Source: an uncultured delta proteobacterium
GTDB taxonomy: Bacteria > Myxococcota > Myxococcia > Myxococcales > Myxococcaceae
Assembly (NCBI GenBank): GCA_963771175.1
Contig: CAVYSY010000052.1
Span: 128,001 to 192,000, forward strand
Direction of reading: 5' to 3'
Length of the DNA: 64,000 nucleotides
The notes under the pieces were generated by a model. The model saw only the letters and a list, made by a program, of their open reading frames with translations. It made no database searches and had not been told where the DNA came from. Of this stretch, positions 50,423 to 64,000 are shown in pieces. Within the stretch, counting starts at the first letter, position 1. Each line of letters opens with the position of its first letter. The position numbers and the translations under genes are program-made.

Positions 50423-50793
50423 GGGCATGACACGGCTTCCTTGAAGTACTGGTGTCGTTCGACACCCCGATAAGGCCACCAATCAATGTGGCCGCTCTTG
50501 ACGTTCGACAGCTTCATTTTCCCACATGAAGGGTCCAGCGTGCCCTCGGCGACACGCGTACCGAGATGAGGTGAGAGCCTGAGCCGATGACACGCGCGCT
50601 CCCGGCTCGTGAAGACCGAAACCGATCTGCGCGCGCAGGGAGGAGCACTCGGTGCGAGGCCGAGTTCCTCGTGGGTTCTGAAATCTTCAGGGCTTGGTGC
50701 TCGGTTGCGGACGATTCGAAACACGCCTCCGCTTGCATCCTCAGCGTCAGTAGGGGGGCATCCGGGGGGCCAGTCGCTCGGAGATTCGGCCAT
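50419..50793 (-). CDS. Small ART/RES-like hypothetical protein
   Basis: WPPGCPP.DA, VFR, DF, C...SVSVF, GHIDWW. Confidence 0.55.
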   Translation of the reverse strand: MAESPSDWPPGCPPTDAEDASGGVFRIVRNRAPSPEDFRTHEELGLAPSAPPCARRSVSVFTSRERACHRLRLSPHLGTRVAEGTLDPSCGKMKLSNVKSGHIDWWPYRGVERHQYFKEAVSCP

Positions 50794-51075
50794 TGTTCGC
50801 TCTGGATGCGAGTAGCAATCGAGAGGGGGCGAAAGTCAAGAGGTAGTGCCTTGGCCCATGCGCTGCACCTCATCTGGTACTGCCTGCTGGCTAGGCAGCA
50901 TAGCCGACAGCCAGAGAATAGGGGCTCGTTCGGCAAGTACCTGTATGCGCGCACGCGCACTGCGGTCGTGAACCTTCAAACGGATGCGGCGTTGGGCCTG
51001 GGCAGGCCTACCACGTTGATGGTGGACGGCGTTGACTTACGGCCGGTTTCAGAGGACTCCCAGCTAGGCCGACTC

Positions 51076-51543
51076 CTACCGCGAGTCGCGCACGCCGATG
51101 GCGAGCTGCCCGAGTCTGACGCTCTTGGCCAGCTCCATCACCTGCACCACGGTGCCGTGGGGGACGCCTTCGTCGGCCTGGACGATGACGATGGTGTCCG
51201 GGTTCTCCTGCTGGGCCTTGGCGAAGGCGCGGCGAACTCGTCCTCGCTGACCACGTTGCCACCCAGGACGAAGCGCCCGTCCGCTAGCACGGCCACGGAC
51301 AGCTCCGTGGCGCGCGCCGTCACGTCGGTGGTGCCACCCTTGGGCAGGTTCACCTTGAGGCCCGTCTGCGCGCCGCCCGGGGCCTGCTGTACGATGACCG
51401 AGTTCATCACCATGAAGATGATGAGGAGCATGAGGAAAATGTCCGTCAGCGGGGTGATGTTGATCTCCCCGAAGCCCGACATCCTCGAAGCCCGAATCCT
51501 CGCCGTTGCCTTCGGAATCCCCCGGAGTCTTGCCCATCGCCAT
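51076..51543 (-). pseudogene. exbD: ExbD/TolR-family protein with two frameshifts
   Basis: MAMGKTPG.. / EINITPLTDIFLMLLIIFMV..VNLPK / IVQADEGVPHGTVVQVMELAK lie in different frames. Confidence 0.8.
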
Positions 51544-51861
51544 AGGGGTGGACCGCAGGACTCCGGCGGGAACAAGGCGCGTCCACCGAGGCCGAATCGA
51601 ATCCTCGGACACATACCCGGGACACCTGTCCTGGCAACGAACATCCTCCGGGCGGCTCACGAGCGGAGTGGTGGCTCGTGGGATGCGCCGCGGGCGTGCT
51701 GGTAGCCACGCTGCATAGCCGCATACGTTCGCCGCAAGCGTCGCGGGGCGTGGGTGTGGGGAACTGAGCAGTCCCGGGGCCGAGCACCTCCCACTTCGGG
51801 CTCGGCGCACGCACCTACCGGGTGGGCTCGGTTCAGACGTCCCCCGACCCAGGAGGCGCGC

Positions 51862-53022
51862 ATGAGCGTCCATCTGCAGCACTTCTCGGTGCGCTACGAG
51901 TATCCGGTCCACTTCACTCGAGACGTCCTCTCCCCGGACAACCCCGCCCTGGCCGAGGCCCTCTGCCGCCTGGAGTCGCGGCGGCACCGGGTGCTGGCGT
52001 TCATCGACCGCGGTGTCTCCGACGCATGGCCCGACCTGAGAGGCCGGCTGCTCCAATATTCGGAGCGCCACACGGACTGTCTCCAGCTCGTCTCGGAGCC
52101 GCTGCTCGTCGAGGGCGGAGAGGCCTGCAAGAACGACCCGTCCGCTCCCATGCGCTTGCTGGCGAAGCTGGACGAGTTCTCGCTCGATCGACATTCCTTC
52201 GTCCTGGCCATCGGAGGCGGGGCGATGTTGGACCTGGTCGGGTTCGCCGCGGCCACCGCTCATCGCGGCATCCGGCTCGTCCGTGTGCCCAGCACCGTGC
52301 TGTCCCAGGCCGATGGGGGCCTCGGGGTGAAGAATGGCGTCAATGCCTTCGGGAAGAAGAACTTCCTCGGCACCTTCGTGCCTCCCTTCGCCGTGCTCAA
52401 CGACTCCCTCCTGCTGGAGACGCTCAGCCTCCGGGACAAGCGCTCCGGCATGGCCGAGGCCGTGAAGGTGGCCCTCCTCAAGGCTCCCGTCTTCTTCGCG
52501 TGGATGGAGACCCATGCGGAGGCGCTCGCCCGCGCCGAGCCCGAGGCCCTGGCCATCCTCGTGCGCGGCGCCGCCAAGCTGCATCTGCGGCACATCGCCA
52601 CCTCGGGAGACCCGTTCGAGCTGGGCAGCGCGCGCCCGCTGGACTTCGGCCACTGGGCCGCCCACAAGCTGGAGGTGCTCTCGGAGCACCGGCTGCGCCA
52701 CGGGGAGGCCGTGGCCATCGGCATCGCCCTGGACACCGCGTACTCGGTGGAGCGTGGGCTGCTCGAGCCCGCCGCGCGCGCGCGCGTGGTGGGACTCCTG
52801 GAGGCGCTGGGCTTCCGGCTGTGGGACGAGGCGCTGGCGCTCGAGAGGGCTGGGCGCCCCCGCGTGCTCGACGGCCTCGCCGAGTTCCGCGAGCACCTGG
52901 GCGGAGAGCTGACCGTCACCCTCCTGCCCGCCATCGGCAAGGGGCTCGAGGTGCATGACATCTGCCTGGAGCGCATGGGCCTCGCACTGGAATGGCTCGC
53001 CCGGAGGAAGGGGGCGAGATGA
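51862..53022 (+). CDS. eboD: EboD, 3-dehydroquinate-synthase-like sugar-phosphate cyclase
   Basis: GGEACKND, DRHS, IGGGAMLDLVG, GVKNGVN, HI...GDPFELGSARPLDFGHWAAHKLE, HGEAV, EFREHLGG. Confidence 0.88.
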   Translation: MSVHLQHFSVRYEYPVHFTRDVLSPDNPALAEALCRLESRRHRVLAFIDRGVSDAWPDLRGRLLQYSERHTDCLQLVSEPLLVEGGEACKNDPSAPMRLLAKLDEFSLDRHSFVLAIGGGAMLDLVGFAAATAHRGIRLVRVPSTVLSQADGGLGVKNGVNAFGKKNFLGTFVPPFAVLNDSLLLETLSLRDKRSGMAEAVKVALLKAPVFFAWMETHAEALARAEPEALAILVRGAAKLHLRHIATSGDPFELGSARPLDFGHWAAHKLEVLSEHRLRHGEAVAIGIALDTAYSVERGLLEPAARARVVGLLEALGFRLWDEALALERAGRPRVLDGLAEFREHLGGELTVTLLPAIGKGLEVHDICLERMGLALEWLARRKGAR

Positions 53023-54233
53023 GGCTCGCTTCGCCTGGCGGGCCGCACCTCACCTACTGCACCAACGTCCACCCCGGCGAGGGCTGGGCCGAGGTGTTCG
53101 ACAACCTCGAGCGGTACGTCGTCCCCGTCAAGGCGCTCGTCTCACCGGAGCAGCCCTTCGGTGTGGGTCTGCGCCTGTCCGCGCGTGCCGCCGAGGAGCT
53201 CTCCCGGCCCGGAGTGCTCGCCGCCTTCCGAGACTGGCTGGGCGCGAGTGGACTGTATGTCTTCACCCTCAATGGCTTTCCCCATGGCGCCTTCCACGGA
53301 GCGCCGGTGAAGGAGGGCGTCTACCGGCCGGACTGGCTGGAGCCGGAGCGAGGCGTCTACACGGAGCGGCTGGCGCACCTGCTGGCGGCGCTGCTGCCCG
53401 AGGGCGTGGAGGGCAGCATCAGCACCGTCCCGTGTGCCTTCCGGACGAGGGTCCGCTTCAACGGCGATGTCGAGCGCATGGCCCGGCGGCTCCTGGAGCA
53501 CCTGTCCTCGCTGCACCGCCTCCGCGAGGACACGGGCCGGAGGGTGTCCCTTGCCCTCGAACCCGAGCCGGGCTGCTTCCTCGAGACGACGGCGGACGTC
53601 GTCTCCTTCTTCCAGGAGCACCTCCTCTCGCGCGACGCGCTGGCGTGCTTCGGCCGGATGAGCGGGCTGTCGCTCGGGGAGGCCGAGGCGTTCCTCCGTT
53701 ACCACCTCGGCGTCTGCCTCGACGCCTGCCACCTCGCGGTGGAGTTCGAGCAGCCTCGGGAGTGCCTGGAGGCCCTCGGGCGGGCGGGCTTGCGCGTCTG
53801 CAAGTACCAGCTCAGCGCCGGGTTGCGGGTGCGCTGGGAGGAGGGGTCGCGAGAGTCCCTGCTCGCGGCGCTCTCCCGCTTCGCCGAGGGCGTCTACCTG
53901 CACCAGGTGGTGCAGCGCCGAGGGGGCACGCTGGCGAAATGGGATGATCTCCCCGAGGCGCTCGCCCGGGCCGCCGAGGAGCTCGGACCCCTGGGCGAGT
54001 GGCGCATCCACTTCCACGTGCCGATCTTCCACGAGGCGCTGGGACACCAGCTCACCAGCACGCAGGCGCAGGTGAGCGAGCTGCTGGCGCTGCTGCACGA
54101 GGAGGGGACGGCACAGCACCTCGAGGTGGAGACGTACACCTGGGAGGTGCTGCCCGAGGAGCTCCGGACGGGGAGCGTGGTGGACTCCCTGGCGCGCGAG
54201 CTGCGCTGGGTGCGCGGGAGGATGGAAGGATGA
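53019..54233 (+). CDS. eboE: EboE, xylose-isomerase-like TIM-barrel protein
   Basis: HLTYCTNVHPGE, GVGLRLS, TLNGFP.G.FH...VK..VY.PDW, LEPEP, YLHQV, WRIHFHVP, HLEVETYTW. Confidence 0.9.
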   Translation: MRLASPGGPHLTYCTNVHPGEGWAEVFDNLERYVVPVKALVSPEQPFGVGLRLSARAAEELSRPGVLAAFRDWLGASGLYVFTLNGFPHGAFHGAPVKEGVYRPDWLEPERGVYTERLAHLLAALLPEGVEGSISTVPCAFRTRVRFNGDVERMARRLLEHLSSLHRLREDTGRRVSLALEPEPGCFLETTADVVSFFQEHLLSRDALACFGRMSGLSLGEAEAFLRYHLGVCLDACHLAVEFEQPRECLEALGRAGLRVCKYQLSAGLRVRWEEGSRESLLAALSRFAEGVYLHQVVQRRGGTLAKWDDLPEALARAAEELGPLGEWRIHFHVPIFHEALGHQLTSTQAQVSELLALLHEEGTAQHLEVETYTWEVLPEELRTGSVVDSLARELRWVRGRMEG

Positions 54234-55111
54234 GCACGCTGCTCGGGCGGCTGGGCGTGTACCTGCGGCTCGGCCGCGTCTCCAACCTGCCCACCGTGTG
54301 GTCCAACGTTCTGGCGGGCATGGTGCTGGCGGGTGGGGTGGTGGAGCCGGGAGGCCTCGCGGGGCTGCTGCTCTCGCTCAGCCTGTTCTACGTGGCCGGC
54401 ATGTTCCTCAATGATGGCTTCGACCGGGGCGTGGATGCGCGAGAGCGGCCGGAGCGGCCCATTCCCGCGGGACGCGTCGGTGCGGGCGAGGTGTTCGCGC
54501 TCGGCTTCGGAATGCTGGCCCTGGCGGTGCTGCTCGTGGTGTTGCAGGCCCGGCGGTCCGGAGTGGGGAGCGGCCCGGCGCTGTTGGCGGGGCTCGCCCT
54601 GGCTGGCGCCATCGTCCTCTATGACGTCTGGCACAAGGACAATCCGGCCAGCCCGCTGGTGATGGGTTCCTGTCGGATGTTGATCTACGTCACCGCGGCC
54701 GCCACCCTCACCGGGCGCGTGGGCTCGTCCGTGGTGGAGGGCGCGCTGGTGCTGCTCTGCTACCTCATCGGCCTCACCTATGCGGCGAAACAGGAGCGCC
54801 GTGAGCGGGTGGGACACTTCTGGCCGCTGCTCTTCCTCGCCGTGCCCTTCGTCTACGTGGCCCCGTCCTTCCTCCGCTCGCCGGTGGTGGCGGGGCTCTT
54901 CCTGGGCTTCCTCGCGTGGGTGGGCCATGCCGTGTCGCTGCTGGTGCGGCGCCCACCCCAGGTGCCTCGAGCGGTGGTCTCCTTCATCGCCGGTATCTCC
55001 CTGCTCGATGCGCTGCTCATCGCCGTCAGCGGCCGCCCGGAGCTGGCCGGGCTGGCGGCTCTGGCCTTTCCGGCTACGCTGTTCCTGCAGCGCTACGTTC
55101 GAGGGACGTGA
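54230..55111 (+). CDS. eboC: EboC, UbiA-family prenyltransferase
   Basis: RVSNLPTVWSN, GMFLNDGFD..D..ERPERPIP, YD..HK, MGSCR, LLDA. Confidence 0.88.
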   Translation: MSTLLGRLGVYLRLGRVSNLPTVWSNVLAGMVLAGGVVEPGGLAGLLLSLSLFYVAGMFLNDGFDRGVDARERPERPIPAGRVGAGEVFALGFGMLALAVLLVVLQARRSGVGSGPALLAGLALAGAIVLYDVWHKDNPASPLVMGSCRMLIYVTAAATLTGRVGSSVVEGALVLLCYLIGLTYAAKQERRERVGHFWPLLFLAVPFVYVAPSFLRSPVVAGLFLGFLAWVGHAVSLLVRRPPQVPRAVVSFIAGISLLDALLIAVSGRPELAGLAALAFPATLFLQRYVRGT

Positions 55112-56501
55112 CGGCGGACCTGGACTCGAAGAGGTGCGAGAGGATGAGCTCCTTGACCTCCGTCGCCCGTACCTCGCGCTCCGGTAGCAGCCGTGGCTCG
55201 CTGGAGAGGAGCAGCGGCCCCCGCGCCGCATCCTCCGTTGGCCGGCCGTGAGAGCCCTTCACCAGGCTCGCATCCAGCGGCACCACGTCCATCAGGTAGC
55301 GCAGACCCAACTTCTTCTTCAGCAGCGTCAGGCCCACCTTGAGCTGAGGCACGCGCAGCGATGGACTCGTGAACAGCTCCACCGGGTCGTACCCGGGCTT
55401 GCGGTGGATGTCGACGGTGCGGGCGAAGTCTGGCGCCCTCCGGTCATCCAGCCAGTAGTAGTAGCTGAACCAGCGGTCCGGTCGGGAGATGGCCACCAGC
55501 TCGCCCGAGCGCGGATGTGCCAGGCCGTGCCGACGCTTGCCCTCCTCGTCCAGCACCTCCTCCACGCCGTCCAGCCGCTCCAGCAGCCGCTTCACCTGAG
55601 CGACCAACTCGGGACGCTGGACGTAGACATGGGCCACCTGGTGATCGGCCACCGCGAAGGCCTGGGAGGCCCCCGCATCCAGCTTCTCCTCTCCCAGCTC
55701 CTCGCGGACGGCGAGCCAGCCGGCCTCGCGAAGCGCGCGGTTGAGGTGCACCGCGCCTCGCACCGGCGTCATGCCGTACTCGGACAGCACCAGCACCCGG
55801 GCCCCATCGGCGGTGACGTGGCGGATGAGCTCGCCACAGACGTCATCCACCTCGCGCAGCGCTCGAGGAATGTCCGGATGGTCCGGCCCCAGCCGCTGCA
55901 AGTCGTAGTCGAGGTGCGGCAGGTAGACGAGCGTGAGCGTCGGCCGGTGGCGGTCGTAGACGATTCGCGCGCAGCGGGCGATCCACCGGGAGGAGGAGAT
56001 GTCGGCACCCGGACCCCAGAACTGGAAGAGGGGGAAGGGCCCGAGCTCCGCGTTCAGCTCCTCGCGCAGGCTCGCGGGCGAGGTGTAGATGTCGGGCAGC
56101 TTGAGGCCGTCGGCGCGGTAGATGGGGCGCGGGGTGACGGAGAAGTCCACCGCCGCGTACATGTTGTACCACCAGAAGAGCTGGGCACAGGTGAACGAGG
56201 CATCCCTCGCCCGGGCCGCTTCCCACAACTTCTCCCCACCCACGAGCCGGTTGGACTGGCGCCAGAGCCACACCTCGGCCAGCTCCCGGAAGTACCAGCC
56301 ATTGGCCACGCAGCCGTGCTCGGAGGGTGGCAGGCCGGTGGTGAAGGTGGCCTGCACCGAGCTGGTGACCGCGGGCAGCACCGTCCGCAGCGGACGCATG
56401 CTCCCGGCCCGGGCGAGTGCCCGCAGGTGGGGCGTGTGCTCCCCCAGCATTCCGGGGGTGAGTCCCACCACGTTGAGCACCACCGTGCGGTGCAGGCTCA
56501 T
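55074..56501 (-). CDS. eboF: EboF, nucleotide pyrophosphatase / alkaline-phosphatase-superfamily protein
   Basis: VLNVVGLT, PAVT, HG.VANGW, LFWWYNM, YLPHLDY.LQR, DHQVAHVY, DIHRKPGYDP, KGSHG. Confidence 0.9.
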   Translation of the reverse strand: MSLHRTVVLNVVGLTPGMLGEHTPHLRALARAGSMRPLRTVLPAVTSSVQATFTTGLPPSEHGCVANGWYFRELAEVWLWRQSNRLVGGEKLWEAARARDASFTCAQLFWWYNMYAAVDFSVTPRPIYRADGLKLPDIYTSPASLREELNAELGPFPLFQFWGPGADISSSRWIARCARIVYDRHRPTLTLVYLPHLDYDLQRLGPDHPDIPRALREVDDVCGELIRHVTADGARVLVLSEYGMTPVRGAVHLNRALREAGWLAVREELGEEKLDAGASQAFAVADHQVAHVYVQRPELVAQVKRLLERLDGVEEVLDEEGKRRHGLAHPRSGELVAISRPDRWFSYYYWLDDRRAPDFARTVDIHRKPGYDPVELFTSPSLRVPQLKVGLTLLKKKLGLRYLMDVVPLDASLVKGSHGRPTEDAARGPLLLSSEPRLLPEREVRATEVKELILSHLFESRSAVTSLERSAAGTA

Positions 56502-57382
56502 GGCCTCACCACAGCGGTCTGCCCGCGCAGCACCGAGTTGCCCTCCCACAGCTCTCGTTGATCGATCTTCGCTGGCTTCTCCAGCTCCGTCAGCTCCAGC
56601 CGGCCGCTCTGGGCGAAGAAGGCCACGGGGTTGCGCCAGACGATGGTTTCGATTGTCTCCTCGTCCACCCCGCGCTCCCGCATCCGTGCCACCGTCTTCG
56701 GCACCTTCAGCGGATCACTCACTCCCCAGTCCGCGGCGCTGTTGATGAGGATGCGCTCGGCGCCGTAGCGCTGGACGAGCGTCACCATGCGCTCCTCGTC
56801 CATCTTCGTGTGCGGGTAGATGGAGTGCCCGGCCCAGCAGCCGCTCTCCAGGACCAGCGGCAACGTCTCCTCGGTGTTGTGGTCCACCAGCACCCGCTCC
56901 TCGGGGAAGCGGTGCTCGCGCAGCAGCGCGAGGGTGTGCTCGGTGCCCCGCTTCTTGTCGCGGTGGGGCGTGTGGACGAGCACCGGCAATTCGAAGCGCC
57001 GGGCCAGCTCGAGCTGCTCGGAGAAGCAGCGCTCCTCGGAGGGCGTCAGCTCGTCGAAGCCGATCTCTCCCACCGCCACCACGCTGTCCTTGCCCAGGTA
57101 GCGCGGCAGCAACGCGAGCACCTGGTCCACCAGGTTCGCGTCGTTGGCCTCCTTGGGGTTGAGGGCCAGGGCGCAGAAGTGGCGGATGCCGAACTGGCTG
57201 GCGCGGAAGCGCTCCCAGCCCACCAGCGAGGCGAAGTAGTCCTCGAAGCTGCCCACCTGCGTGCGCGGCTGGCCGAGCCAGAACGCGGGTTCGAGCACCG
57301 CGGCGATGCCCATGGCGGCCATGGACTGGTAGTCGTCCGTCGTGCGGGACGTCATGTGGATGTGTGGATCGAACAGCTTCAT
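56498..57382 (-). CDS. eboB: EboB, TatD-family metallohydrolase
   Basis: DPHIHMTSRTTDDY, EPAFWLGQPR, GWERFRASQFG, HTPHRDK, SAADWG.SDPL. Confidence 0.9.
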   Translation of the reverse strand: MKLFDPHIHMTSRTTDDYQSMAAMGIAAVLEPAFWLGQPRTQVGSFEDYFASLVGWERFRASQFGIRHFCALALNPKEANDANLVDQVLALLPRYLGKDSVVAVGEIGFDELTPSEERCFSEQLELARRFELPVLVHTPHRDKKRGTEHTLALLREHRFPEERVLVDHNTEETLPLVLESGCWAGHSIYPHTKMDEERMVTLVQRYGAERILINSAADWGVSDPLKVPKTVARMRERGVDEETIETIVWRNPVAFFAQSGRLELTELEKPAKIDQRELWEGNSVLRGQTAVVRP

Positions 57383-58053
57383 GCGGAGGCTCCCGAGGGA
57401 AGAAGAAGGGTGAGGTCATGCGGGAGGCTGCGTCCGGCCGCCCTGCGCTCGCTCGCGTAGGCAGCGGCCATGCGGGCCAGCTCGGGGTTGCGCCGGCGCT
57501 CCAGCCCCACCACGCGCGCCAGGGGCACGCCGGTGAAGACGGCCTTGAGCACCAACTGGTTGAAGGCGGACTCCGGGAAGAGCGCCGCGGGGTAGGAGTT
57601 CTCGCAGGCGATGGCCTCGAAGACGGGCTGGACGTGGGTGCGGCAGGCGTCTCTTGCCAGCTCCAGGAAGCGCTCGGGACGGAGCAGCAGTGGCAGCGTC
57701 TTCAGTACGGCCTGCCGCTCGGCGTTGTCCCCGCTTCGGTAGCACGCGGCGACGAGGGCCTCGTGTCTCTCCGGCGCCAGCTGCTCCTGCGCGCGCAGCA
57801 GCAGCGCCACACGTCCCAGCAGCGCGGGAGTGCAGGTGTCCGGGGCCAGCGACAAGCCGAGCCCGGCCAGCGCGTCCCCCGGAGTGCCGAGCGGCTTCTG
57901 GCCGAGCCGCCGCCCGGCCATGGCGAAGGCCTCGAGGAAGGCCGAGTCGTCGAGGCCGTTTCCGGAGGAGGGAGCACTGGCTCGGGAGAGCCACTCCCAA
58001 GTGGAGGAATCGAGCCGGGACTCCAGGAATCCGAGCAGGTGCGAAGCACTCAT
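57379..58053 (-). CDS. eboA: EboA-domain protein
   Basis: GD..ER.AVL..LP, ACR......FEAIACEN.YPA, FNQLVLKAVF, ERRAAGR. Confidence 0.88.
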   Translation of the reverse strand: MSASHLLGFLESRLDSSTWEWLSRASAPSSGNGLDDSAFLEAFAMAGRRLGQKPLGTPGDALAGLGLSLAPDTCTPALLGRVALLLRAQEQLAPERHEALVAACYRSGDNAERQAVLKTLPLLLRPERFLELARDACRTHVQPVFEAIACENSYPAALFPESAFNQLVLKAVFTGVPLARVVGLERRRNPELARMAAAYASERRAAGRSLPHDLTLLLPSGASA

Positions 58054-58228
58054 GGCCGAGCGAGTTAGTGACGACAAAACGCCGTCACAAGCGCGGGCCG
58101 CGGCACTGGCTGGAAGTGGACGCGCTCCAGACAGGCCACTGTGGTTCGGGTGACAACCCCGGCCCGGCTCGGGTGCCCCCAGGTCCCATCCCCCGGAGAA
58201 AGGCACCCGCACACTGCGCTCGGACGCA

Positions 58229-58348
58229 CTTCCGCCCGAGGAGCTCGCCCAGCTCATGGCGCGCTTCTACGACGTCATGGCGGGAGTGGCCTTCGAGAAT
58301 GAGGCCACGCTCGACAAGTTCATTGGCGATGCGGTGATGGCGCTGTGA
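58229..58348 (+). pseudogene. Fragment of a class III adenylate/guanylate cyclase
   Basis: Translates LPPEELAQLMARFYDVMAGVAFENEATLDKFIGDAVMAL then stop. Confidence 0.7.
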
Positions 58349-58349
58349 C

Positions 58350-59066
58350 TCAGCGCGGGGGGAGCCTCTTCTGCGAGCCGCCGAACTTGAAGATAGGGCC
58401 CGAGAGCTCCAGCTGGACGTAGTTGCGCGGGAGCCGCTCCGCCTCGAGGCCCAAGGAGACGTTCTGTTCGACCACGATGTCCGCGCCGAGGATGTGGTTG
58501 TAGGTCACCCCGAGACGGAGGCCGCCGAAGTCGATGCCGAGCTGCGGCGCGATACCGTAGAACCGGCCGCCCGACTGAGAGACACCCGCTCCACCGCTCC
58601 CCGCGCTCACGCTCTGACCGGCGAGCACGTACATGCCGCCTCCAAAGCCGGCGAACGGACGAACGCCGGAGCTCCCGAGGAGGAGCTCCGCCTTGACGAG
58701 CGAGGCCGATGAAGCCCCGAGCGCGACCGTCGTGTTCCCAGCCGGCACGATGCGGCCGCCGAACACGACGCCACCATCGATCCGAAAACCCACCGCGAAC
58801 CAATCGGTGACGTTCCACTTCGGCTCGACCACCGCCCCGATTCCGTAGCTCTTCGTGCCGTAGCCCCAGAGGCCGGCCACGCCCGCGTGGACGACGAGGA
58901 GCGGCTGCTTGCGCTCACTGGGCGCCTCGCCCGTCATCGCGGACGCCTCGGGCCGATCAGCCGCCTCGACCGCGGGGGCACTGCTCGGAGAGGCGAAGAC
59001 GCAGAGGGGCAGCAGCGTGGCAACCAGCACGGCGCTGGCGTGTAGCTGGGACAATGCACGGTTCAT
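58350..59066 (-). CDS. Outer-membrane beta-barrel protein
   Basis: Signal ending VFA; EPKWNVTD, VRPFAGFGGG, GIAPQLG, GVTYNHI. Confidence 0.75.
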   Translation of the reverse strand: MNRALSQLHASAVLVATLLPLCVFASPSSAPAVEAADRPEASAMTGEAPSERKQPLLVVHAGVAGLWGYGTKSYGIGAVVEPKWNVTDWFAVGFRIDGGVVFGGRIVPAGNTTVALGASSASLVKAELLLGSSGVRPFAGFGGGMYVLAGQSVSAGSGGAGVSQSGGRFYGIAPQLGIDFGGLRLGVTYNHILGADIVVEQNVSLGLEAERLPRNYVQLELSGPIFKFGGSQKRLPPR

Positions 59067-59264
59067 CGAAAATCCTCGGGCGTTGATGTTGAAGCGGCTC
59101 GTGGACGATCGATTGTGCGGAATATTCACGTGAAGTGCGACCAGGCCCAGCGTCACGAGTGCGGAGAGAGGGAAGCAGGCAGGAGAGCCGCACGGCGGGG
59201 AGTCTCCTCGAGGGAGCCCACCCTGGGGCTAGACTCCAGCACTCCTCCGTTTGATGGATTTCGG

Positions 59265-60161
59265 GTGACGCCAAACGAAACATGGGGCCACGCCTCGCGG
59301 GCGCTGCGGCGACTGGGAGATACCGGCCTCCTCCTCCCCGCATCGGGAGCGGGGATGGTGACGATGCTGGCGCTGGCATGTACCGGCCGCGTCTCGGTCC
59401 CGCTGGCGCTGACGGTGGGGCTGCTCGTGTACTGCAGCTACCTCATCGACTTCGTGGGGGAGATAAACCAGTTCAAGCCGGAGTTGGCCTCCGCGCGCAC
59501 CCGGCTGCTGGCTCGCCGCCGTCACCTCCTGCTGCTGGGGGGCGCGGCGCTGCTGGGGGCGATGGTGCTGACGGGGGCCTTCGCCGGAGCGCTGCTCGCC
59601 GCCAGCCTGCTCCTCTATCCGATAGCCGTGGTGCTCTATGGACTGCCGGTGCTGTCGCGGCTGCCGTGGAGGTTCACCCGGCTCAAGGACGTGCCCTACC
59701 TCAAGGCCTTCTACGTCGCCTGCTTCTGGGCGCTCCTGGCGCCGTTCACCCTGGCCTTCCTGGGGCTTCACCGGCCCGGCACGGCGCTCGGTCATGCCGT
59801 GCTCCTCTTCGTGCGCACCTTCATGAGCATCAACCTCTGCGACCTGAAGGACGTGGAGCGGGACCGGCAGGCCGGTGTCCGCACGCTCGTGCTCGCGCTG
59901 GGGGAGACGCGGCTGTTGCGGTGGCTGCGGGGGATGAACCTGCTGACGCTTCCCTTGCTGCTGGGCCTCGTGCTCGCCGGGGCCGTTCCCCCCGCGATGC
60001 TCTTCCTGGGGCTCACGCTGGGCTGGTTCGCCCTGGCGCTGCGGCTGATGGAGCGCCGGGCCGCCGAGCCCGAGTTCATCTGCGCCATCTTCGTGGACGG
60101 AGAGTGGATTCTCTGGCCCGCCTATCTGCTACTCGGCATGTGGCTGCTGGACCCTGGGTGA
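59265..60161 (+). CDS. UbiA-family prenyltransferase
   Basis: Multi-pass; RLKDVPYLK..VA..W; Asp-rich CDLKDVERDRQAGVRTL; first Asp motif degenerate (YLIDFVGE); start uncertain. Confidence 0.8.
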   Translation: MTPNETWGHASRALRRLGDTGLLLPASGAGMVTMLALACTGRVSVPLALTVGLLVYCSYLIDFVGEINQFKPELASARTRLLARRRHLLLLGGAALLGAMVLTGAFAGALLAASLLLYPIAVVLYGLPVLSRLPWRFTRLKDVPYLKAFYVACFWALLAPFTLAFLGLHRPGTALGHAVLLFVRTFMSINLCDLKDVERDRQAGVRTLVLALGETRLLRWLRGMNLLTLPLLLGLVLAGAVPPAMLFLGLTLGWFALALRLMERRAAEPEFICAIFVDGEWILWPAYLLLGMWLLDPG

Positions 60162-60168
60162 CCCCATC

Positions 60169-60831
60169 ATGAATCGCGAGTCCCTCGACTTCTTCTCCCC
60201 CTCACTGCTGCTCCCCATCGTCTTCTCGCTGCTCAGCTGGCTCACCGTCTACGTGCTCATCATCCGCAAGGGGCTGGTGGAGCGAACGTACGCGATGCCG
60301 CTGCTGCCCTTGTGCGTGAACCTCTCGTATGAGTTCTTCTTCGGGTTCATCCGCCCGGACGCGCCGCCCATCAACTACGTCAACATCAGCTGGTTTCTGT
60401 TCGACCTGGGAATTGTCTTCACCTACCTGCGCTTCGGGGCGAAGGAGTTCCCCGCCGTGCTCCCCCGCTCCTGGTTCCTCCCCTCGTTCGTCGCCGTCCT
60501 CGCCCTGGCCTTCGCCGGCGTGGCGGCGATGACGTATGAGTTCAAGGACTGGACCGGCAGCTACACGGGGTGGGGCGCGAACACGCTGATGTCGGCTGCG
60601 TACATCGCCCTGCTGCTGCGGCGGGGGAGCACGGCCGGGCAGTCCATGTATATCGGCCTGTTCCGGCTCATCGGGAGCGCGGCGCTCATCTCCGTGGAGA
60701 TGCGCATCAGTCCGAACAGCGTTCTGCTGCCATTCTTCTATGTGGCCTTCGTCCTGTTGGACCTGACGTACCTTTTCCTCCTCCACGGCCAGTTCGTGAG
60801 GGAGGGAAAGAAGCCCTGGCGGATCGCGTAG
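60169..60831 (+). CDS. Pyr4/PaxB/XiaH-family integral-membrane terpene cyclase
   Basis: 220 aa, about seven TM; W..VY...IRKG...TYAMP..LCVNLSYE, WFLFD, RGSTAGQS, C-terminal D..Y. Confidence 0.78.
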   Translation: MNRESLDFFSPSLLLPIVFSLLSWLTVYVLIIRKGLVERTYAMPLLPLCVNLSYEFFFGFIRPDAPPINYVNISWFLFDLGIVFTYLRFGAKEFPAVLPRSWFLPSFVAVLALAFAGVAAMTYEFKDWTGSYTGWGANTLMSAAYIALLLRRGSTAGQSMYIGLFRLIGSAALISVEMRISPNSVLLPFFYVAFVLLDLTYLFLLHGQFVREGKKPWRIA

Positions 60832-60880: not shown

Positions 60881-61423
60881 TTGGCGGGTCACGTCATGAA
60901 GGAGGTCCTCGATGGTGGGGACGCGCGGAGACATTCTTCCGGCTCCTGGCCAAGTGCCACCCGAGCTATGCTCGGTTGTGGGTCGAAGGCGGAGTTCGCG
61001 CCGAACTTCCTGTGGCTCTTCTTTCCCACGGAGGCCCCAGGTCATGAGCGCATGGTCAGCGCGCCCATCGTCGCGAGCATCATGGGCGCCATCGCGGTGG
61101 CCTGGGAGCCGGAGTGGGCCCTCTCGACAGAGGACAGTCTCTGGGACCAGCTCTCCGGTGGCAGTCGGATCGGCTGCTTCCTGGGGTGGATGACGTACTT
61201 CTCGCGTGAGCGGGGAGAGGTGCCCGCCCTGCCCGCGCCCGCGCGCGTGGAGCCGGTAGACGACAAGGGCACGCTCGTCACGCTGACGCCCGAGCGGCTC
61301 ACCGCGAGCAATCCCGAGCACGTGGCCCTCGCCTGGCGCGTCCAGAAGCTGCTCGAAGAGCGAGGACTGCTCAAGCGGGTGGTCGAGCCCCTGCTGTCGT
61401 GCGGCCATGAAGGAGTTACGTGA
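60881..61423 (+). CDS. Imm52-like immunity protein, probably N-terminally truncated orphan
   Basis: AWEPEW, GWMTYFS..RG.VPALPAPARVEPV.DKGTLV.LTPER.TASNPEHV. Confidence 0.7.
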   Translation: MAGHVMKEVLDGGDARRHSSGSWPSATRAMLGCGSKAEFAPNFLWLFFPTEAPGHERMVSAPIVASIMGAIAVAWEPEWALSTEDSLWDQLSGGSRIGCFLGWMTYFSRERGEVPALPAPARVEPVDDKGTLVTLTPERLTASNPEHVALAWRVQKLLEERGLLKRVVEPLLSCGHEGVT

Positions 61424-62879: not shown

Positions 62880-64000
62880 TCACTTGATGCCGTGCCGCCG
62901 CAGCAGGCGGTACAGGTACACGCGGTCCATGTCCGCGCCGGTGGCCGCCTGGGACACCTTGCCCTGGTGCAGCTCCAGCAGCGCGCGCAGGTAGCGCCGC
63001 TCGAAGTCGTCCAGCGCCAGCCGCCTCGCCTCCGCGTAGGGCACCTTCGGGTCCACCTCGAAGCGGCTGCCCGCCGGTGTCACATCCGAGAGCGCCAGTG
63101 TGTCCTCGAACACCAGACACCGCTCCAGGTAGTTGCGCAGCTCGCGCACGTTGCCCGGCCATGCCGCCTGCTCCAGCCGCGCGATGAACTCCGGCGAGCG
63201 CAGCGCCTGCGTCCGCTCCGGCTCCGCCCCCAGCGAGGTCAGCACCTGCTCCACCAGGAACTTCAGGTCCTCGGGCCGCTGGCGCACGGGCGGCAGGGGA
63301 ATGCGCAGCACCGCCAGCCGGAAGAAGAGGTCCGAGCGGAACCGTCCCGCGTTCACCTCGGCGCGCAGGTCCCGGTTGGTGGCGGCGATGATGCGCACGT
63401 CCACGGGCACGTAGTTGTTGGTGCCCACCCGGCGGATTTCCCGCGCCTCCAGCACGCGCAGCAGCTTGGGCTGGAGCTCCGCGGGCAGCTCGCCCATCTC
63501 GTCGAGGAAGAGGGTGCCGCCGTGGGCCTCCTCGAAGGCGCCGATGCGCCGGTTGGCCGCGCCGGTGAAGGCCCCCTTCTCGTGGCCGAACAGCTCGCTC
63601 TCCAGCAGGTCCGGGGGGATGGCGCCGCAGTCCACGGTGAGGAAGGGCTTGTCGCGGCGGGCACTCTCCTGGTGGATGGCCTGGGCCGCCTGGCTCTTGC
63701 CGGTGCCCGTCTCGCCCTCGAGCAGCACCGTCACGTCCTTGCTGGCCGCGCGCTCCAGCAGGGCGAAGCACATGCGCATCGGCACCGAGACGCCCACCAG
63801 CGAGCCGAAGCGCGTACGCTCGGACACCTGCAACCGGTTGCTGTCGGAGCTGAAATCGAAGCGAACCACCGCGCGGCCCAGCCGCAGGAGGCTCCCGCCT
63901 CGCAGGTACCCGTCGGCCACCTGCACGCCGTCGAGGATGATGCCGTTGGTGCTGTCCAGGTCCTTCACCCGCGCGCCCTTGGGGCCCACGCGAATCTCAC
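62880..64000 (-). CDS. Sigma54-dependent enhancer-binding protein with FHA domain (5' end outside window)
   Basis: [53 protein letters not shown]-terminal HTH. Confidence 0.93.

Follow-up and report, generated by a model that had tools for sequence, protein, structure and literature searches.

A conserved two-gene unit encoding a UbiA-superfamily protein and a predicted Pyr4-family terpene cyclase, located next to an ebo cluster in an uncultured myxobacterium

Results and discussion

We describe a pair of adjacent genes in a 64,000-nucleotide stretch (hereafter, the window) of the genome of an uncultured myxobacterium of the family Myxococcaceae (contig CAVYSY010000052.1, positions 128,001 to 192,000). 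The first gene (59265..60161, forward strand) encodes a divergent membrane protein of the UbiA prenyltransferase superfamily (hereafter, UbiA2), and the second (60169..60831, forward strand) encodes a 220-amino acid (aa) protein of the Pyr4 family of seven-transmembrane (TM) terpene cyclases (hereafter, TC). The two genes, interpreted as a minimal unit in the first-pass annotation of the window, comprise a real, conserved unit that is present in all seven loci encoding the closest relatives of TC. On balance, the evidence tips modestly toward a self-contained, co-inherited unit that prenylates an acceptor and then cyclizes the attached chain.

TC is a member of the Pyr4 family

The open reading frame (ORF) of TC starts with the ATG at 60169, 7 nt after the TGA stop codon of UbiA2 that ends at 60161; given this gap, TC probably is translationally coupled to UbiA2. 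The GC content of the window is 70%, and chance long ORFs are plentiful there. Both frames nevertheless represent genuine coding sequences rather than chance ORFs because their GC content at third codon positions (GC3) is 0.90 for UbiA2 and 0.92 for TC, compared to 0.47 and 0.55, respectively, for the overlapping alternative frames. The TC sequence matches the Pfam profile of Pyr4-like transmembrane terpene cyclases (PF25129) over profile positions 21-221 of 227 with a score of 100.8 bits (cut-off 27; E = 1.2e-28), and its nearest ESM Atlas clusters all belong to PF25129 (score 0.98). An AlphaFold2 model built from an alignment of 144 relatives (predicted local distance difference test (pLDDT) 95.8, predicted template modeling score (pTM) 0.91) consists of seven long helices (residues 11-38, 45-61, 68-93, 100-124, 131-152, 160-180, and 186-211).

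The motifs quoted in the first-pass annotation, namely, TYAMPLLPLCVNLSYE, WFLFD, and a C-terminal Asp and Tyr (LLDLTYL, D198..Y201), are all present in the ORF. In the model, E55, D79, and D198 sit mid-helix in TM2, TM3, and TM7, respectively. We compared 32 full-length relatives, one from the window and one from each of 31 loci; 11 of the 12 Streptomyces loci, where the matches end at residue 172, were excluded (only L027 was kept), as were the partial L019 and the second gene copy of L018 and of L020. E55, D79, and Y28 are invariant in this set (32/32 each), and D198 is conserved in 28, with Asn in the remaining four; at least 90% of the 144 family representatives also have E55, D198, and Y28. 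The putative correspondence to the residues of DmtA1 and of Pyr4 (E63 and D218 in Pyr4 itself) is drawn from position and motif. The Glu and Asp residues that are conserved in membrane cyclases including Pyr4 have been proposed to catalyze the cyclization (E60 and D214 of the seven-TM cyclase DmtA1); in the same study, a Tyr was conserved in all membrane cyclases, and a further Asp was reported to matter where the protonated group is an olefin and not an epoxide (PMC6173783). The canonical terpene cyclase motifs, DxDD and DDxxD, are missing in TC, and indeed, the 220-aa sequence contains no DD dipeptide. With the profile score, the helix count, and the Glu, Asp, and Tyr residues all fitting, TC clearly belongs to PF25129, as had been proposed from the motifs, and is predicted to be a cyclase.

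A solved structure was not found in the TC family by sequence or profile search (E ≤ 1) or by Foldseek (E ≤ 1e-3), and the best Foldseek matches in the PDB are the seven-TM SWEET, KDEL-receptor, and cystinosin proteins (TM-scores of 0.5-0.6, E ≥ 0.017). It could be argued, then, that TC is a transporter-like or other seven-TM membrane protein that only shares the Pyr4 fold, particularly, given that no Pyr4-family structure has been solved and that many bacterial homologs are orphans without terpenoid neighbors; in a recent survey, terpenoid genes were reported near 264 of 1,107 homologs (PMC13307353). We consider this highly improbable: the acidic residues that are catalytic in characterized members are invariant or nearly so in the relatives of TC, the gene is coupled to a prenyltransferase gene throughout its own clade, and none of the fold matches, all of them weak, reaches E ≤ 1e-3.

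UbiA2 is a divergent UbiA-superfamily protein

The frame encoding UbiA2 (59115-60161, forward strand) matches the Pfam profile PF01040 (UbiA) with a score of 44.5 bits (cut-off 34.2; E = 1.5e-11). The start codon is uncertain. The gene call in the protein database begins at the ATG at 59355 and yields 268 aa; the in-frame GTG at 59265 is a reasonable start because homologs align upstream of 59355. The AlphaFold2 model of UbiA2, built from a 6-sequence alignment, is all-helical (pLDDT 87.9, pTM 0.86), and the best PDB folds identified with Foldseek are the UbiA homologs 4tq4 and 4od4, DGGGP synthase, and UBIAD1 (TM-scores of 0.53-0.67; E = 3.3e-4 for 4tq4, TM-scores of 0.62/0.67 for 4od4). Members of the UbiA superfamily bind Mg2+ and diphosphate through two Asp-rich motifs, of the NDxxDxxxD and DxxxD types. 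The second motif of UbiA2 is NLCDLKDVERD, and its family form, CD(L/F)KDxxRD, is invariant in all six family members. The nearest solved relative by profile comparison, DGGGP synthase 6m31 (E = 4.6e-5), aligns over this second motif. By virtue of the profile score above the threshold and the predicted fold, UbiA2 is a member of the UbiA superfamily.

UbiA2 could have been a duplicate or ortholog of EboC, the UbiA-type enzyme encoded in the ebo cluster of the same window; this possibility was ruled out because UbiA2 does not match the EboC model and BLASTP against the EboC of the window yields E = 0.38. Matches of UbiA2 in NCBIfam are all below the respective thresholds, with none to the EboC model (NF035940). 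Word-indexed searches retrieved only one and then five relatives of UbiA2, annotated as 'hypothetical' or as 'UbiA family prenyltransferase', and provided no clue to its function.

UbiA2 and TC form a conserved minimal unit

By scanning a single genome for each species with a 6-sequence query alignment, we obtained 43 loci that encode relatives of TC, and a hidden Markov model (HMM) of the TC family, run over all six frames, detected the cyclase in all 43. The HMM of the UbiA2 family matched exactly seven of these loci, L001-L007, those encoding the closest relatives of TC, and none of the other 36. A tblastn search with eleven window proteins showed that, in L001-L005 and L007, the UbiA2 homolog immediately precedes the cyclase gene and has the same orientation; in L006, it is divergent and farther away. 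In the same-strand loci for which the coordinates of both ORFs are available (the window, L001, L002, L003, and L005), the gap between the two genes is 7-36 nt. In a metagenome-assembled genome (MAG) of Prosthecobacter (L004, 4714-5751), the UbiA2 homolog is broken over three overlapping frames, representing either a pseudogene or an assembly error, with an intact cyclase gene behind it. A metagenomic relative that is 92% identical (P0003) was found on a 2.4-kb contig.

The coupling of the two genes is also apparent in the phylogeny. In a tree of 45 cyclases, the eight UbiA2-linked sequences fall on one side of a branch with a support of 93 in the Shimodaira-Hasegawa-like approximate likelihood ratio test (96 for seven of them), although the tree was constructed with a quick method and several of these eight sequences are on long branches. 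The presence of UbiA2 can be mapped onto this tree with a single change, compared to a mean of 7.5 changes for shuffled labels, and none of the 500 shuffles gave a value as low. The hosts of the eight linked cyclases belong to Myxococcota, Methylococcaceae, and Verrucomicrobiota, and IS110 transposases are encoded within about 3 kb of the pair in L001 and L002.

Beyond the pair itself, only generic kinase and sigma-54 activator cores are conserved in these neighborhoods. In agreement with the initial reading, which saw no epoxidase or polyprenyl synthase in the window, we detected no polyprenyl synthase, cytochrome P450 (P450), or flavin adenine dinucleotide (FAD)-dependent epoxidase among the 76 ORFs of L001-L007, and Pfam scans of selected window ORFs, rather than every frame, detected no polyprenyl synthase, epoxidase, or P450 in the window. 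A gene for the formation of an acceptor was not found beside the pair, either among the same 76 ORFs or among the scanned window ORFs, and conserved genes for quinones, carotenoids, or hopanoids are likewise absent next to the pair in these loci.

Putative activity of the unit

From these features, we infer a prenylate-then-cyclize order of reactions. UbiA2 would use its intramembrane, Mg2+-dependent active site to transfer an oligoprenyl chain of housekeeping origin to a small acceptor that is not provided by neighboring genes; the likeliest donors are farnesyl diphosphate (FPP) and geranylgeranyl diphosphate (GGPP), with farnesyl or geranylgeranyl as the chain. The buried E55 of TC would then act as a Bronsted acid, assisted by D79, D198, and Y28, and protonate the terminal double bond; direct protonation of the olefin, rather than of an epoxide, is suggested by the fact that no epoxidase travels with the pair. 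The resulting type-II-like polyene cyclization could produce drimane- or labdane-like rings, and an acceptor heteroatom might close the ring system.

Several observations weigh against this scheme. The match of UbiA2 to PF01040 is modest and partial (profile positions 68-238 of 250), and its first Asp-rich motif is non-canonical (SYLIDFVGE, which has the form DxxxE and lacks the Asn, compared to SYxID(H)LxD among the relatives), so that UbiA2 possibly has a role other than aromatic prenyl transfer. In TC, the Trp that precedes the catalytic Glu in the WE motif, and is found in at least 90% of the 144 representatives, is replaced by Y54, a substitution already spotted in the first-pass annotation. 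TC keeps its place in the family despite this change because the replacement is a conservative aromatic one that is common to close relatives; among the 32 full-length relatives, Tyr is found in this position in five, all within the UbiA2-linked clade. The substrate and product of the pair are guesses, given that neither an acceptor-forming gene nor a prenyl-diphosphate synthase gene is located alongside. Most of the other sampled bacterial members of PF25129, including those from Peptostreptococcaceae and Lactobacillaceae, have no prenyl-related neighbor, and the family may do more than meroterpenoid cyclization. Finally, the cassette perhaps is not autonomous in this particular genome because the product of the adjoining ebo cluster requires just such a cyclization.

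Some of these points suggest a different activity, in which no meroterpenoid is made: UbiA2 would be a UbiA-type terpene synthase or modify a housekeeping isoprenoid lipid (a quinone, a carotenoid, or a polyprenyl carrier), and TC would cyclize that lipid into a cyclic membrane terpenoid; alternatively, TC would first cyclize a prenyl diphosphate that UbiA2 then transfers. The absence of an acceptor gene, combined with movement across three phyla, is explained most easily if both substrates are universal isoprenoids. The atypical first motif of UbiA2 and the profile match to a lipid synthase, DGGGP synthase 6m31, point in the same direction, although the latter is limited to the shared motif region; furthermore, fungal enzymes of the Pyr4 family also make pure triterpenoids (PMC11109268), and evidence of cyclization by UbiA-like enzymes is cited in a recent preprint (bioRxiv 10.64898/2026.05.21.724671). 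We nevertheless regard this activity as improbable. In the characterized Pyr4-family pathways covered in the literature cited here, the cyclase acts on a chain pre-installed by a separate prenyltransferase or squalene-type enzyme, and the lack of conserved quinone, carotenoid, or hopanoid genes next to the pair does not suggest a housekeeping lipid substrate. Prenylation by UbiA2 followed by cyclization by TC thus remains our preferred interpretation.

The adjacent ebo cluster

All six ebo genes are present in the window. They form two converging blocks, with 3' ends that overlap at 55074-55111. The forward-strand block consists of eboD (51754-53022; NCBIfam PRK06203, 553.6 bits; Pfam DHQ_synthase), eboE (within 52992-54233; NCBIfam TIM_EboE, 469.5 bits), and eboC (within 53999-55111; 110.1 bits with the EboC model, below its cut-off of 250; Pfam UbiA). 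The reverse-strand block includes eboA (57379-58257; NCBIfam EboA_domain, 158.7 bits, cut-off 50), eboB/TatD (56498-57382; Pfam TatD_DNase, 61.4 bits), and the phosphodiesterase gene eboF (55074-56549; Pfam Phosphodiest, 212.6 bits). Elsewhere, the order differs: a single co-directional operon A-B-F-D-E-C in Azospirillum and D-E-C-A-B-F in Mycetohabitans.

The reverse-strand block is headed by a gene for a Gly-rich, apparently secreted protein (58350-59066, reverse strand) with a signal-peptide-like N-terminus, possibly, a small outer-membrane beta-barrel. No Pfam or NCBIfam match was detected for this protein even at E ≤ 5, and no homolog in six other ebo loci; its nearest ESM Atlas clusters are annotated 'outer membrane protein beta-barrel' (0.97), and PF13505 ranks 12th, so that the barrel assignment is a supported lead. 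The first-pass annotation had located a barrel gene and eboA about 1.2 kb from the pair: eboA is indeed in this position, with its start somewhat closer, 1,008 nt from 59265, and the identity of the barrel stands as the lead just described.

The functional context of ebo has recently changed. The initial suggestion that the pair might use Ebo for export is outdated because a bioRxiv preprint of May 2026 (10.64898/2026.05.21.724671) presents ebo as a biosynthetic pathway that makes the farnesyl-quinoline precursor of thallusin. According to this preprint, all 27 thallusin producers that were tested carry ebo genes, whereas 8 non-producers lack them; deletion of eboB, eboC, eboE, or eboF abolishes thallusin production; the quinoline core is derived from the EboD cyclitol and aspartate; and EboC farnesylates hydroxyquinaldic acids. 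The drimane cyclization is not assigned to an enzyme, with the speculation that EboC performs both steps, and the main text does not mention 'Pyr4'. The other initial suggestion, that the pair acts on an Ebo-derived substrate, becomes chemically more plausible because EboC is reported to farnesylate hydroxyquinolines and no cyclase has been assigned. For the same reason, the adjacency of the pair to ebo is a testable lead.

Under such a connection, EboC would farnesylate the hydroxyquinaldic acid derived from the cyclitol and aspartate, TC would catalyze the drimane-forming, pyran-closing cyclization, UbiA2 would serve as a second or alternative prenyltransferase, and the barrel-like protein would help release the product. 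The arrangement in the window is compatible with this possibility: the pair diverges from the strand encoding the barrel-like protein and eboA-B-F across only 198 bp, lies 1.0 kb from eboA, and has GC3 values within the range of the ebo genes (0.79-0.94), so that it does not appear to be a recent insertion, and the ebo set itself is complete. Also compatible are the reported presence of ebo core genes in Myxococcota and Verrucomicrobiota (10.64898/2026.05.21.724671) and the activity of ZigF, a bacterial Pyr4-like cyclase, on a prenylated quinolone (PMC13307353). Furthermore, Nostoc punctiforme PCC 73102, described in the same preprint as an ebo-bearing thallusin producer, carries on plasmid pNPUN02 a cyclase homolog (L044, 8965-10739; 40% identity, annotated as hypothetical) next to a gene for isopentenyl phosphate kinase that, in turn, overlaps an IS4 transposase gene. 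The same cyclase is found on two other Nostoc plasmids; neither UbiA2 nor ebo genes were detected within 9 kb of the pNPUN02 cyclase.

The comparative data, however, do not support a link. Searches with the six Ebo proteins (tblastn, E ≤ 1e-5) detected no ebo genes within 10 kb of the cyclase in any of the 43 related loci, including the seven with UbiA2. Conversely, in six ebo loci from Gemmatirosa, Deinococcus, Azospirillum, Mycetohabitans, and two Streptomyces, examined with 15 kb on each side, there were no matches to the TC or UbiA2 HMMs (E ≤ 1), whereas in the window used as a positive control, the same HMMs yielded E-values of 6.9e-83 and 2.5e-130, respectively. Among the 47 records of a plasmid collection that encode EboE, some of them chromosome-size (including an 11.85-Mb Nonomuraea record), none encodes a TC homolog; TC homologs were found in seven other records. 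The expectation of the first-pass annotation that the pair would co-occur with ebo thus failed at the level of gene neighborhoods and single records, which these tests cover, as opposed to whole genomes, and the failure bears on the link alone. In addition, the Bacteroidota producers are described in the preprint as having complete six-gene operons, with no extra cyclization gene named; with EboC already present, the need for a second prenyltransferase is unexplained; and the relationship of UbiA2 to EboC does not go further than the shared superfamily.

Most likely, therefore, the position of the pair next to ebo is fortuitous or reflects a lineage-specific recruitment rather than a general property of the cassette, and we view a functional link as possible but clearly the less expected outcome. 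The fully specified version, in which TC was recruited in this lineage to convert the EboC-farnesylated hydroxyquinaldic acid to the drimane-pyran core of a saccharoquinoline/thallusin-type signal, with UbiA2 diversifying the prenylation and the divergent barrel releasing the product, is slightly more doubtful still. More broadly, Pyr4-like cyclases that are not linked to ebo, for example, that on the Nostoc punctiforme plasmid, could perform the thallusin cyclization in other ebo producers.

Other features of the neighborhood

The 198-bp spacer between the divergent units (59067..59264) might serve as a shared control region for both. It contains no match to the sigma-70 or sigma-54 consensus and no notable repeat. 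Around the pair, we found no sigma-70-like sites and no meaningful repeat; the single terminator-like site is inside TC, fewer than shuffled sequences give. Histidine kinases, response regulators, or sigma-54 activators are encoded within 5 kb of the pair in five of the eight loci (the window, L001, L004, L005, and L006), including a sigma-54 activator in the window (62880-63989, reverse strand), and have only generic catalytic cores in common across loci. Control of the pair by sigma-54 was rejected: the TGGCAC-N5-TTGC consensus has 55 matches in the window compared to the 65 expected, none of these in the spacer, and the best matches upstream of the pair in the eight loci agree with the consensus in 5-9 of 11 positions.

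A recent horizontal insertion of the pair beside ebo is ruled out by codon usage, the GC3 of both genes being similar to that of their neighbors. An older rearrangement is possible given the ORF directly downstream of TC (60881-61423, forward strand), whose product matches Immunity protein 52 (Imm52; PF15579, profile positions 91-231 of 233, E = 5e-44) in the C-terminal part alone. This ORF apparently is a truncated or shortened immunity gene because in-frame stop codons are located just upstream; no toxin gene was seen beside it. On the other side of the ebo cluster, a 372-aa ORF (50587-51705, forward strand) stops 49 nt short of eboD. Neither a match in Pfam or NCBIfam nor a homolog in the six other ebo loci was detected for this ORF, and it is uncertain as a gene because its GC3 is only 0.75 in a stretch of lower GC content (49.5-51 kb, GC 0.59-0.64). 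The barrel-like protein, the 372-aa ORF product, and Imm52 have no homologs detectable by tblastn in the 43 cyclase loci.

Diversity of the family in bacteria

Only nine relatives of TC were retrieved in a word-indexed search; among those with a name, the nearest come from Methylocaldum (55%) and Nostoc (37%). A profile of these nine detected 1,692 representatives in a representative protein library (E ≤ 1e-3). Bacterial Pyr4-like cyclases thus are numerous; 1,107 sequences from the non-redundant database were collected in the published survey, of which the search model was built on six bacterial homologs, two of these uncharacterized, and two thirds of the filtered set were actinobacterial (PMC13307353).

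In a survey of neighboring genes (129 of the 244 listed ORFs from 28 loci, and 22 additional ORFs at E ≤ 0.01), the other clades of PF25129 showed different partners or none. In Anaerolineales and other Chloroflexota (L010-L014, L019, and L043), the cyclase gene is preceded by genes for an N_BRCA1_IG-domain protein, a YbjN-like protein, and an unknown 250-280-aa protein (PIG-L in L014), and followed by that for an FkbM-type methyltransferase, with a polyprenyl synthase gene 1.5 kb further in L010 and L011. In two Planctomycetota MAGs (L040, 8739-10633; L041, 8741-10630), the cyclase gene directly follows a gene for an MpaB/Lcp-family oxygenase, with GTP cyclohydrolase I encoded upstream; MpaB-type enzymes cleave prenyl chains oxidatively, and Planctomycetota include thallusin producers in which no enzyme is assigned to the oxidative step. 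We treat this context as a lead only. Acidobacteriota and an unclassified MAG (L017, L018, and L020) encode two tandem cyclase paralogs, the aligned copies having Asn rather than Asp in the position of D198. The PF25129 genes of Peptostreptococcaceae and Lactobacillaceae (L022, L023, L028, L038, L039, and L042) are orphans that retain the counterparts of E55, D79, and D198 and have no isoprenoid gene nearby; in Lactobacillaceae, the upstream neighbor encodes a TetR-like regulator. In a Rubrobacteraceae MAG (L008, 1168-4906), genes for a thiamine pyrophosphate (TPP)-dependent enzyme, the cyclase, and a short-chain dehydrogenase are found together, which recalls the association of a TPP enzyme with the cyclase reported for clusters of the zig type (see below).

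Significance and comparison with known systems

The epoxidase-free, two-gene cassette of Myxococcota, methanotrophs, and Verrucomicrobiota represents the simplest version of the prenylate-then-cyclize scheme and is small enough for direct expression and assay. Its proximity to ebo raises the stakes: thallusin is a picomolar morphogen of the seaweed Ulva (10.64898/2026.05.21.724671), and ebo lies 1 kb from the pair. Should TC prove to serve ebo, it would supply the enzyme class that is missing from the thallusin pathway, a more important result; should TC add nothing to EboC, the idea that EboC cyclizes alone would be strengthened.

The combination of a UbiA prenyltransferase and a Pyr4-like cyclase in bacteria is of a known kind. 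Neither the minimal, epoxidase-free, three-phylum form nor its position next to ebo is described in the literature that we searched, in line with the statement of the first-pass annotation that no such combination had been described from myxobacteria; the supplementary list of 264 in PMC13307353 may include members of the clade. The bacterial PF25129-type cyclases XiaH (xiamycin), TylF (tolypodiol), and GroF (gromomycin) are characterized enzymes that head the two largest groups in that survey (PMC13307353). Unlike TC, they are encoded in larger clusters, and the XiaH reaction is epoxide-initiated (PMC6173783); the comparison of these enzymes with the clade from the window is by description.

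The logic that founds the family, prenylation followed by cyclization, is that of the fungal pairs Pyr4-Pyr6 (pyripyropene) and MfmD-MfmH. Pyr6 is UbiA-like. These systems differ from the pair described here in being eukaryotic, clustered with polyketide synthase (PKS) genes, and usually epoxide-initiated. The reported formation of a drimane by MfmH, the partner of MfmD, from an unepoxidized farnesyl group (PMC10882540) is closer to the reaction suggested for TC, and fungal clusters with UbiA and Pyr4 genes and without PKS have been noted as uncharacterized (PMC11109268).

The ebo/thallusin system resembles the pair in that its product requires farnesylation by a UbiA-type enzyme (Ubi-297/EboC, PMC9235831) followed by drimane cyclization (10.64898/2026.05.21.724671). 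It differs in gene content, as neither the six other ebo clusters have a Pyr4-like gene nearby nor the 43 other cyclase loci have ebo, and in its prenyltransferase, UbiA2 being distinct from EboC.

A close bacterial parallel in terms of enzymes is the zig cluster of Micromonospora zingiberis, where the UbiA-like prenyltransferase ZigC and the Pyr4-like cyclase ZigF contribute to the zigralones, built on a quinolone scaffold (PMC13307353; JACS, June 2026). There, as suggested here, the chain is attached by a UbiA-family enzyme and then folded by a membrane cyclase of the PF25129 type, and the quinolone is near to the ebo-derived quinoline. However, the zig cluster consists of about 15 genes including those for a TPP enzyme, a polyprenyl synthase, and five P450s, with epoxidation by one P450 preceding the cyclization (PMC13307353), whereas the unit in the window comprises two genes, with no epoxidase, synthase, or acceptor pathway, and is non-actinobacterial; ZigF and ZigC were compared with TC and UbiA2 by description.

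In the size of the gene set and in the suggested chemistry, the drimentine loci of Streptomyces are a close counterpart (PMC6173783). The prenyltransferase of these loci, DmtC1, is phytoene-synthase-like, and the cyclodipeptide acceptor is made by a cyclodipeptide synthase (CDPS) encoded in the locus itself, two clear differences from the pair. The cyclization of the drimane, in turn, starts with protonation of a C=C bond, without epoxidation, and DmtA1 shares with TC the seven TM helices, the conserved Glu, Asp, and Tyr, and an additional Asp implicated in catalysis, D94, for which D79 of TC is the candidate counterpart.

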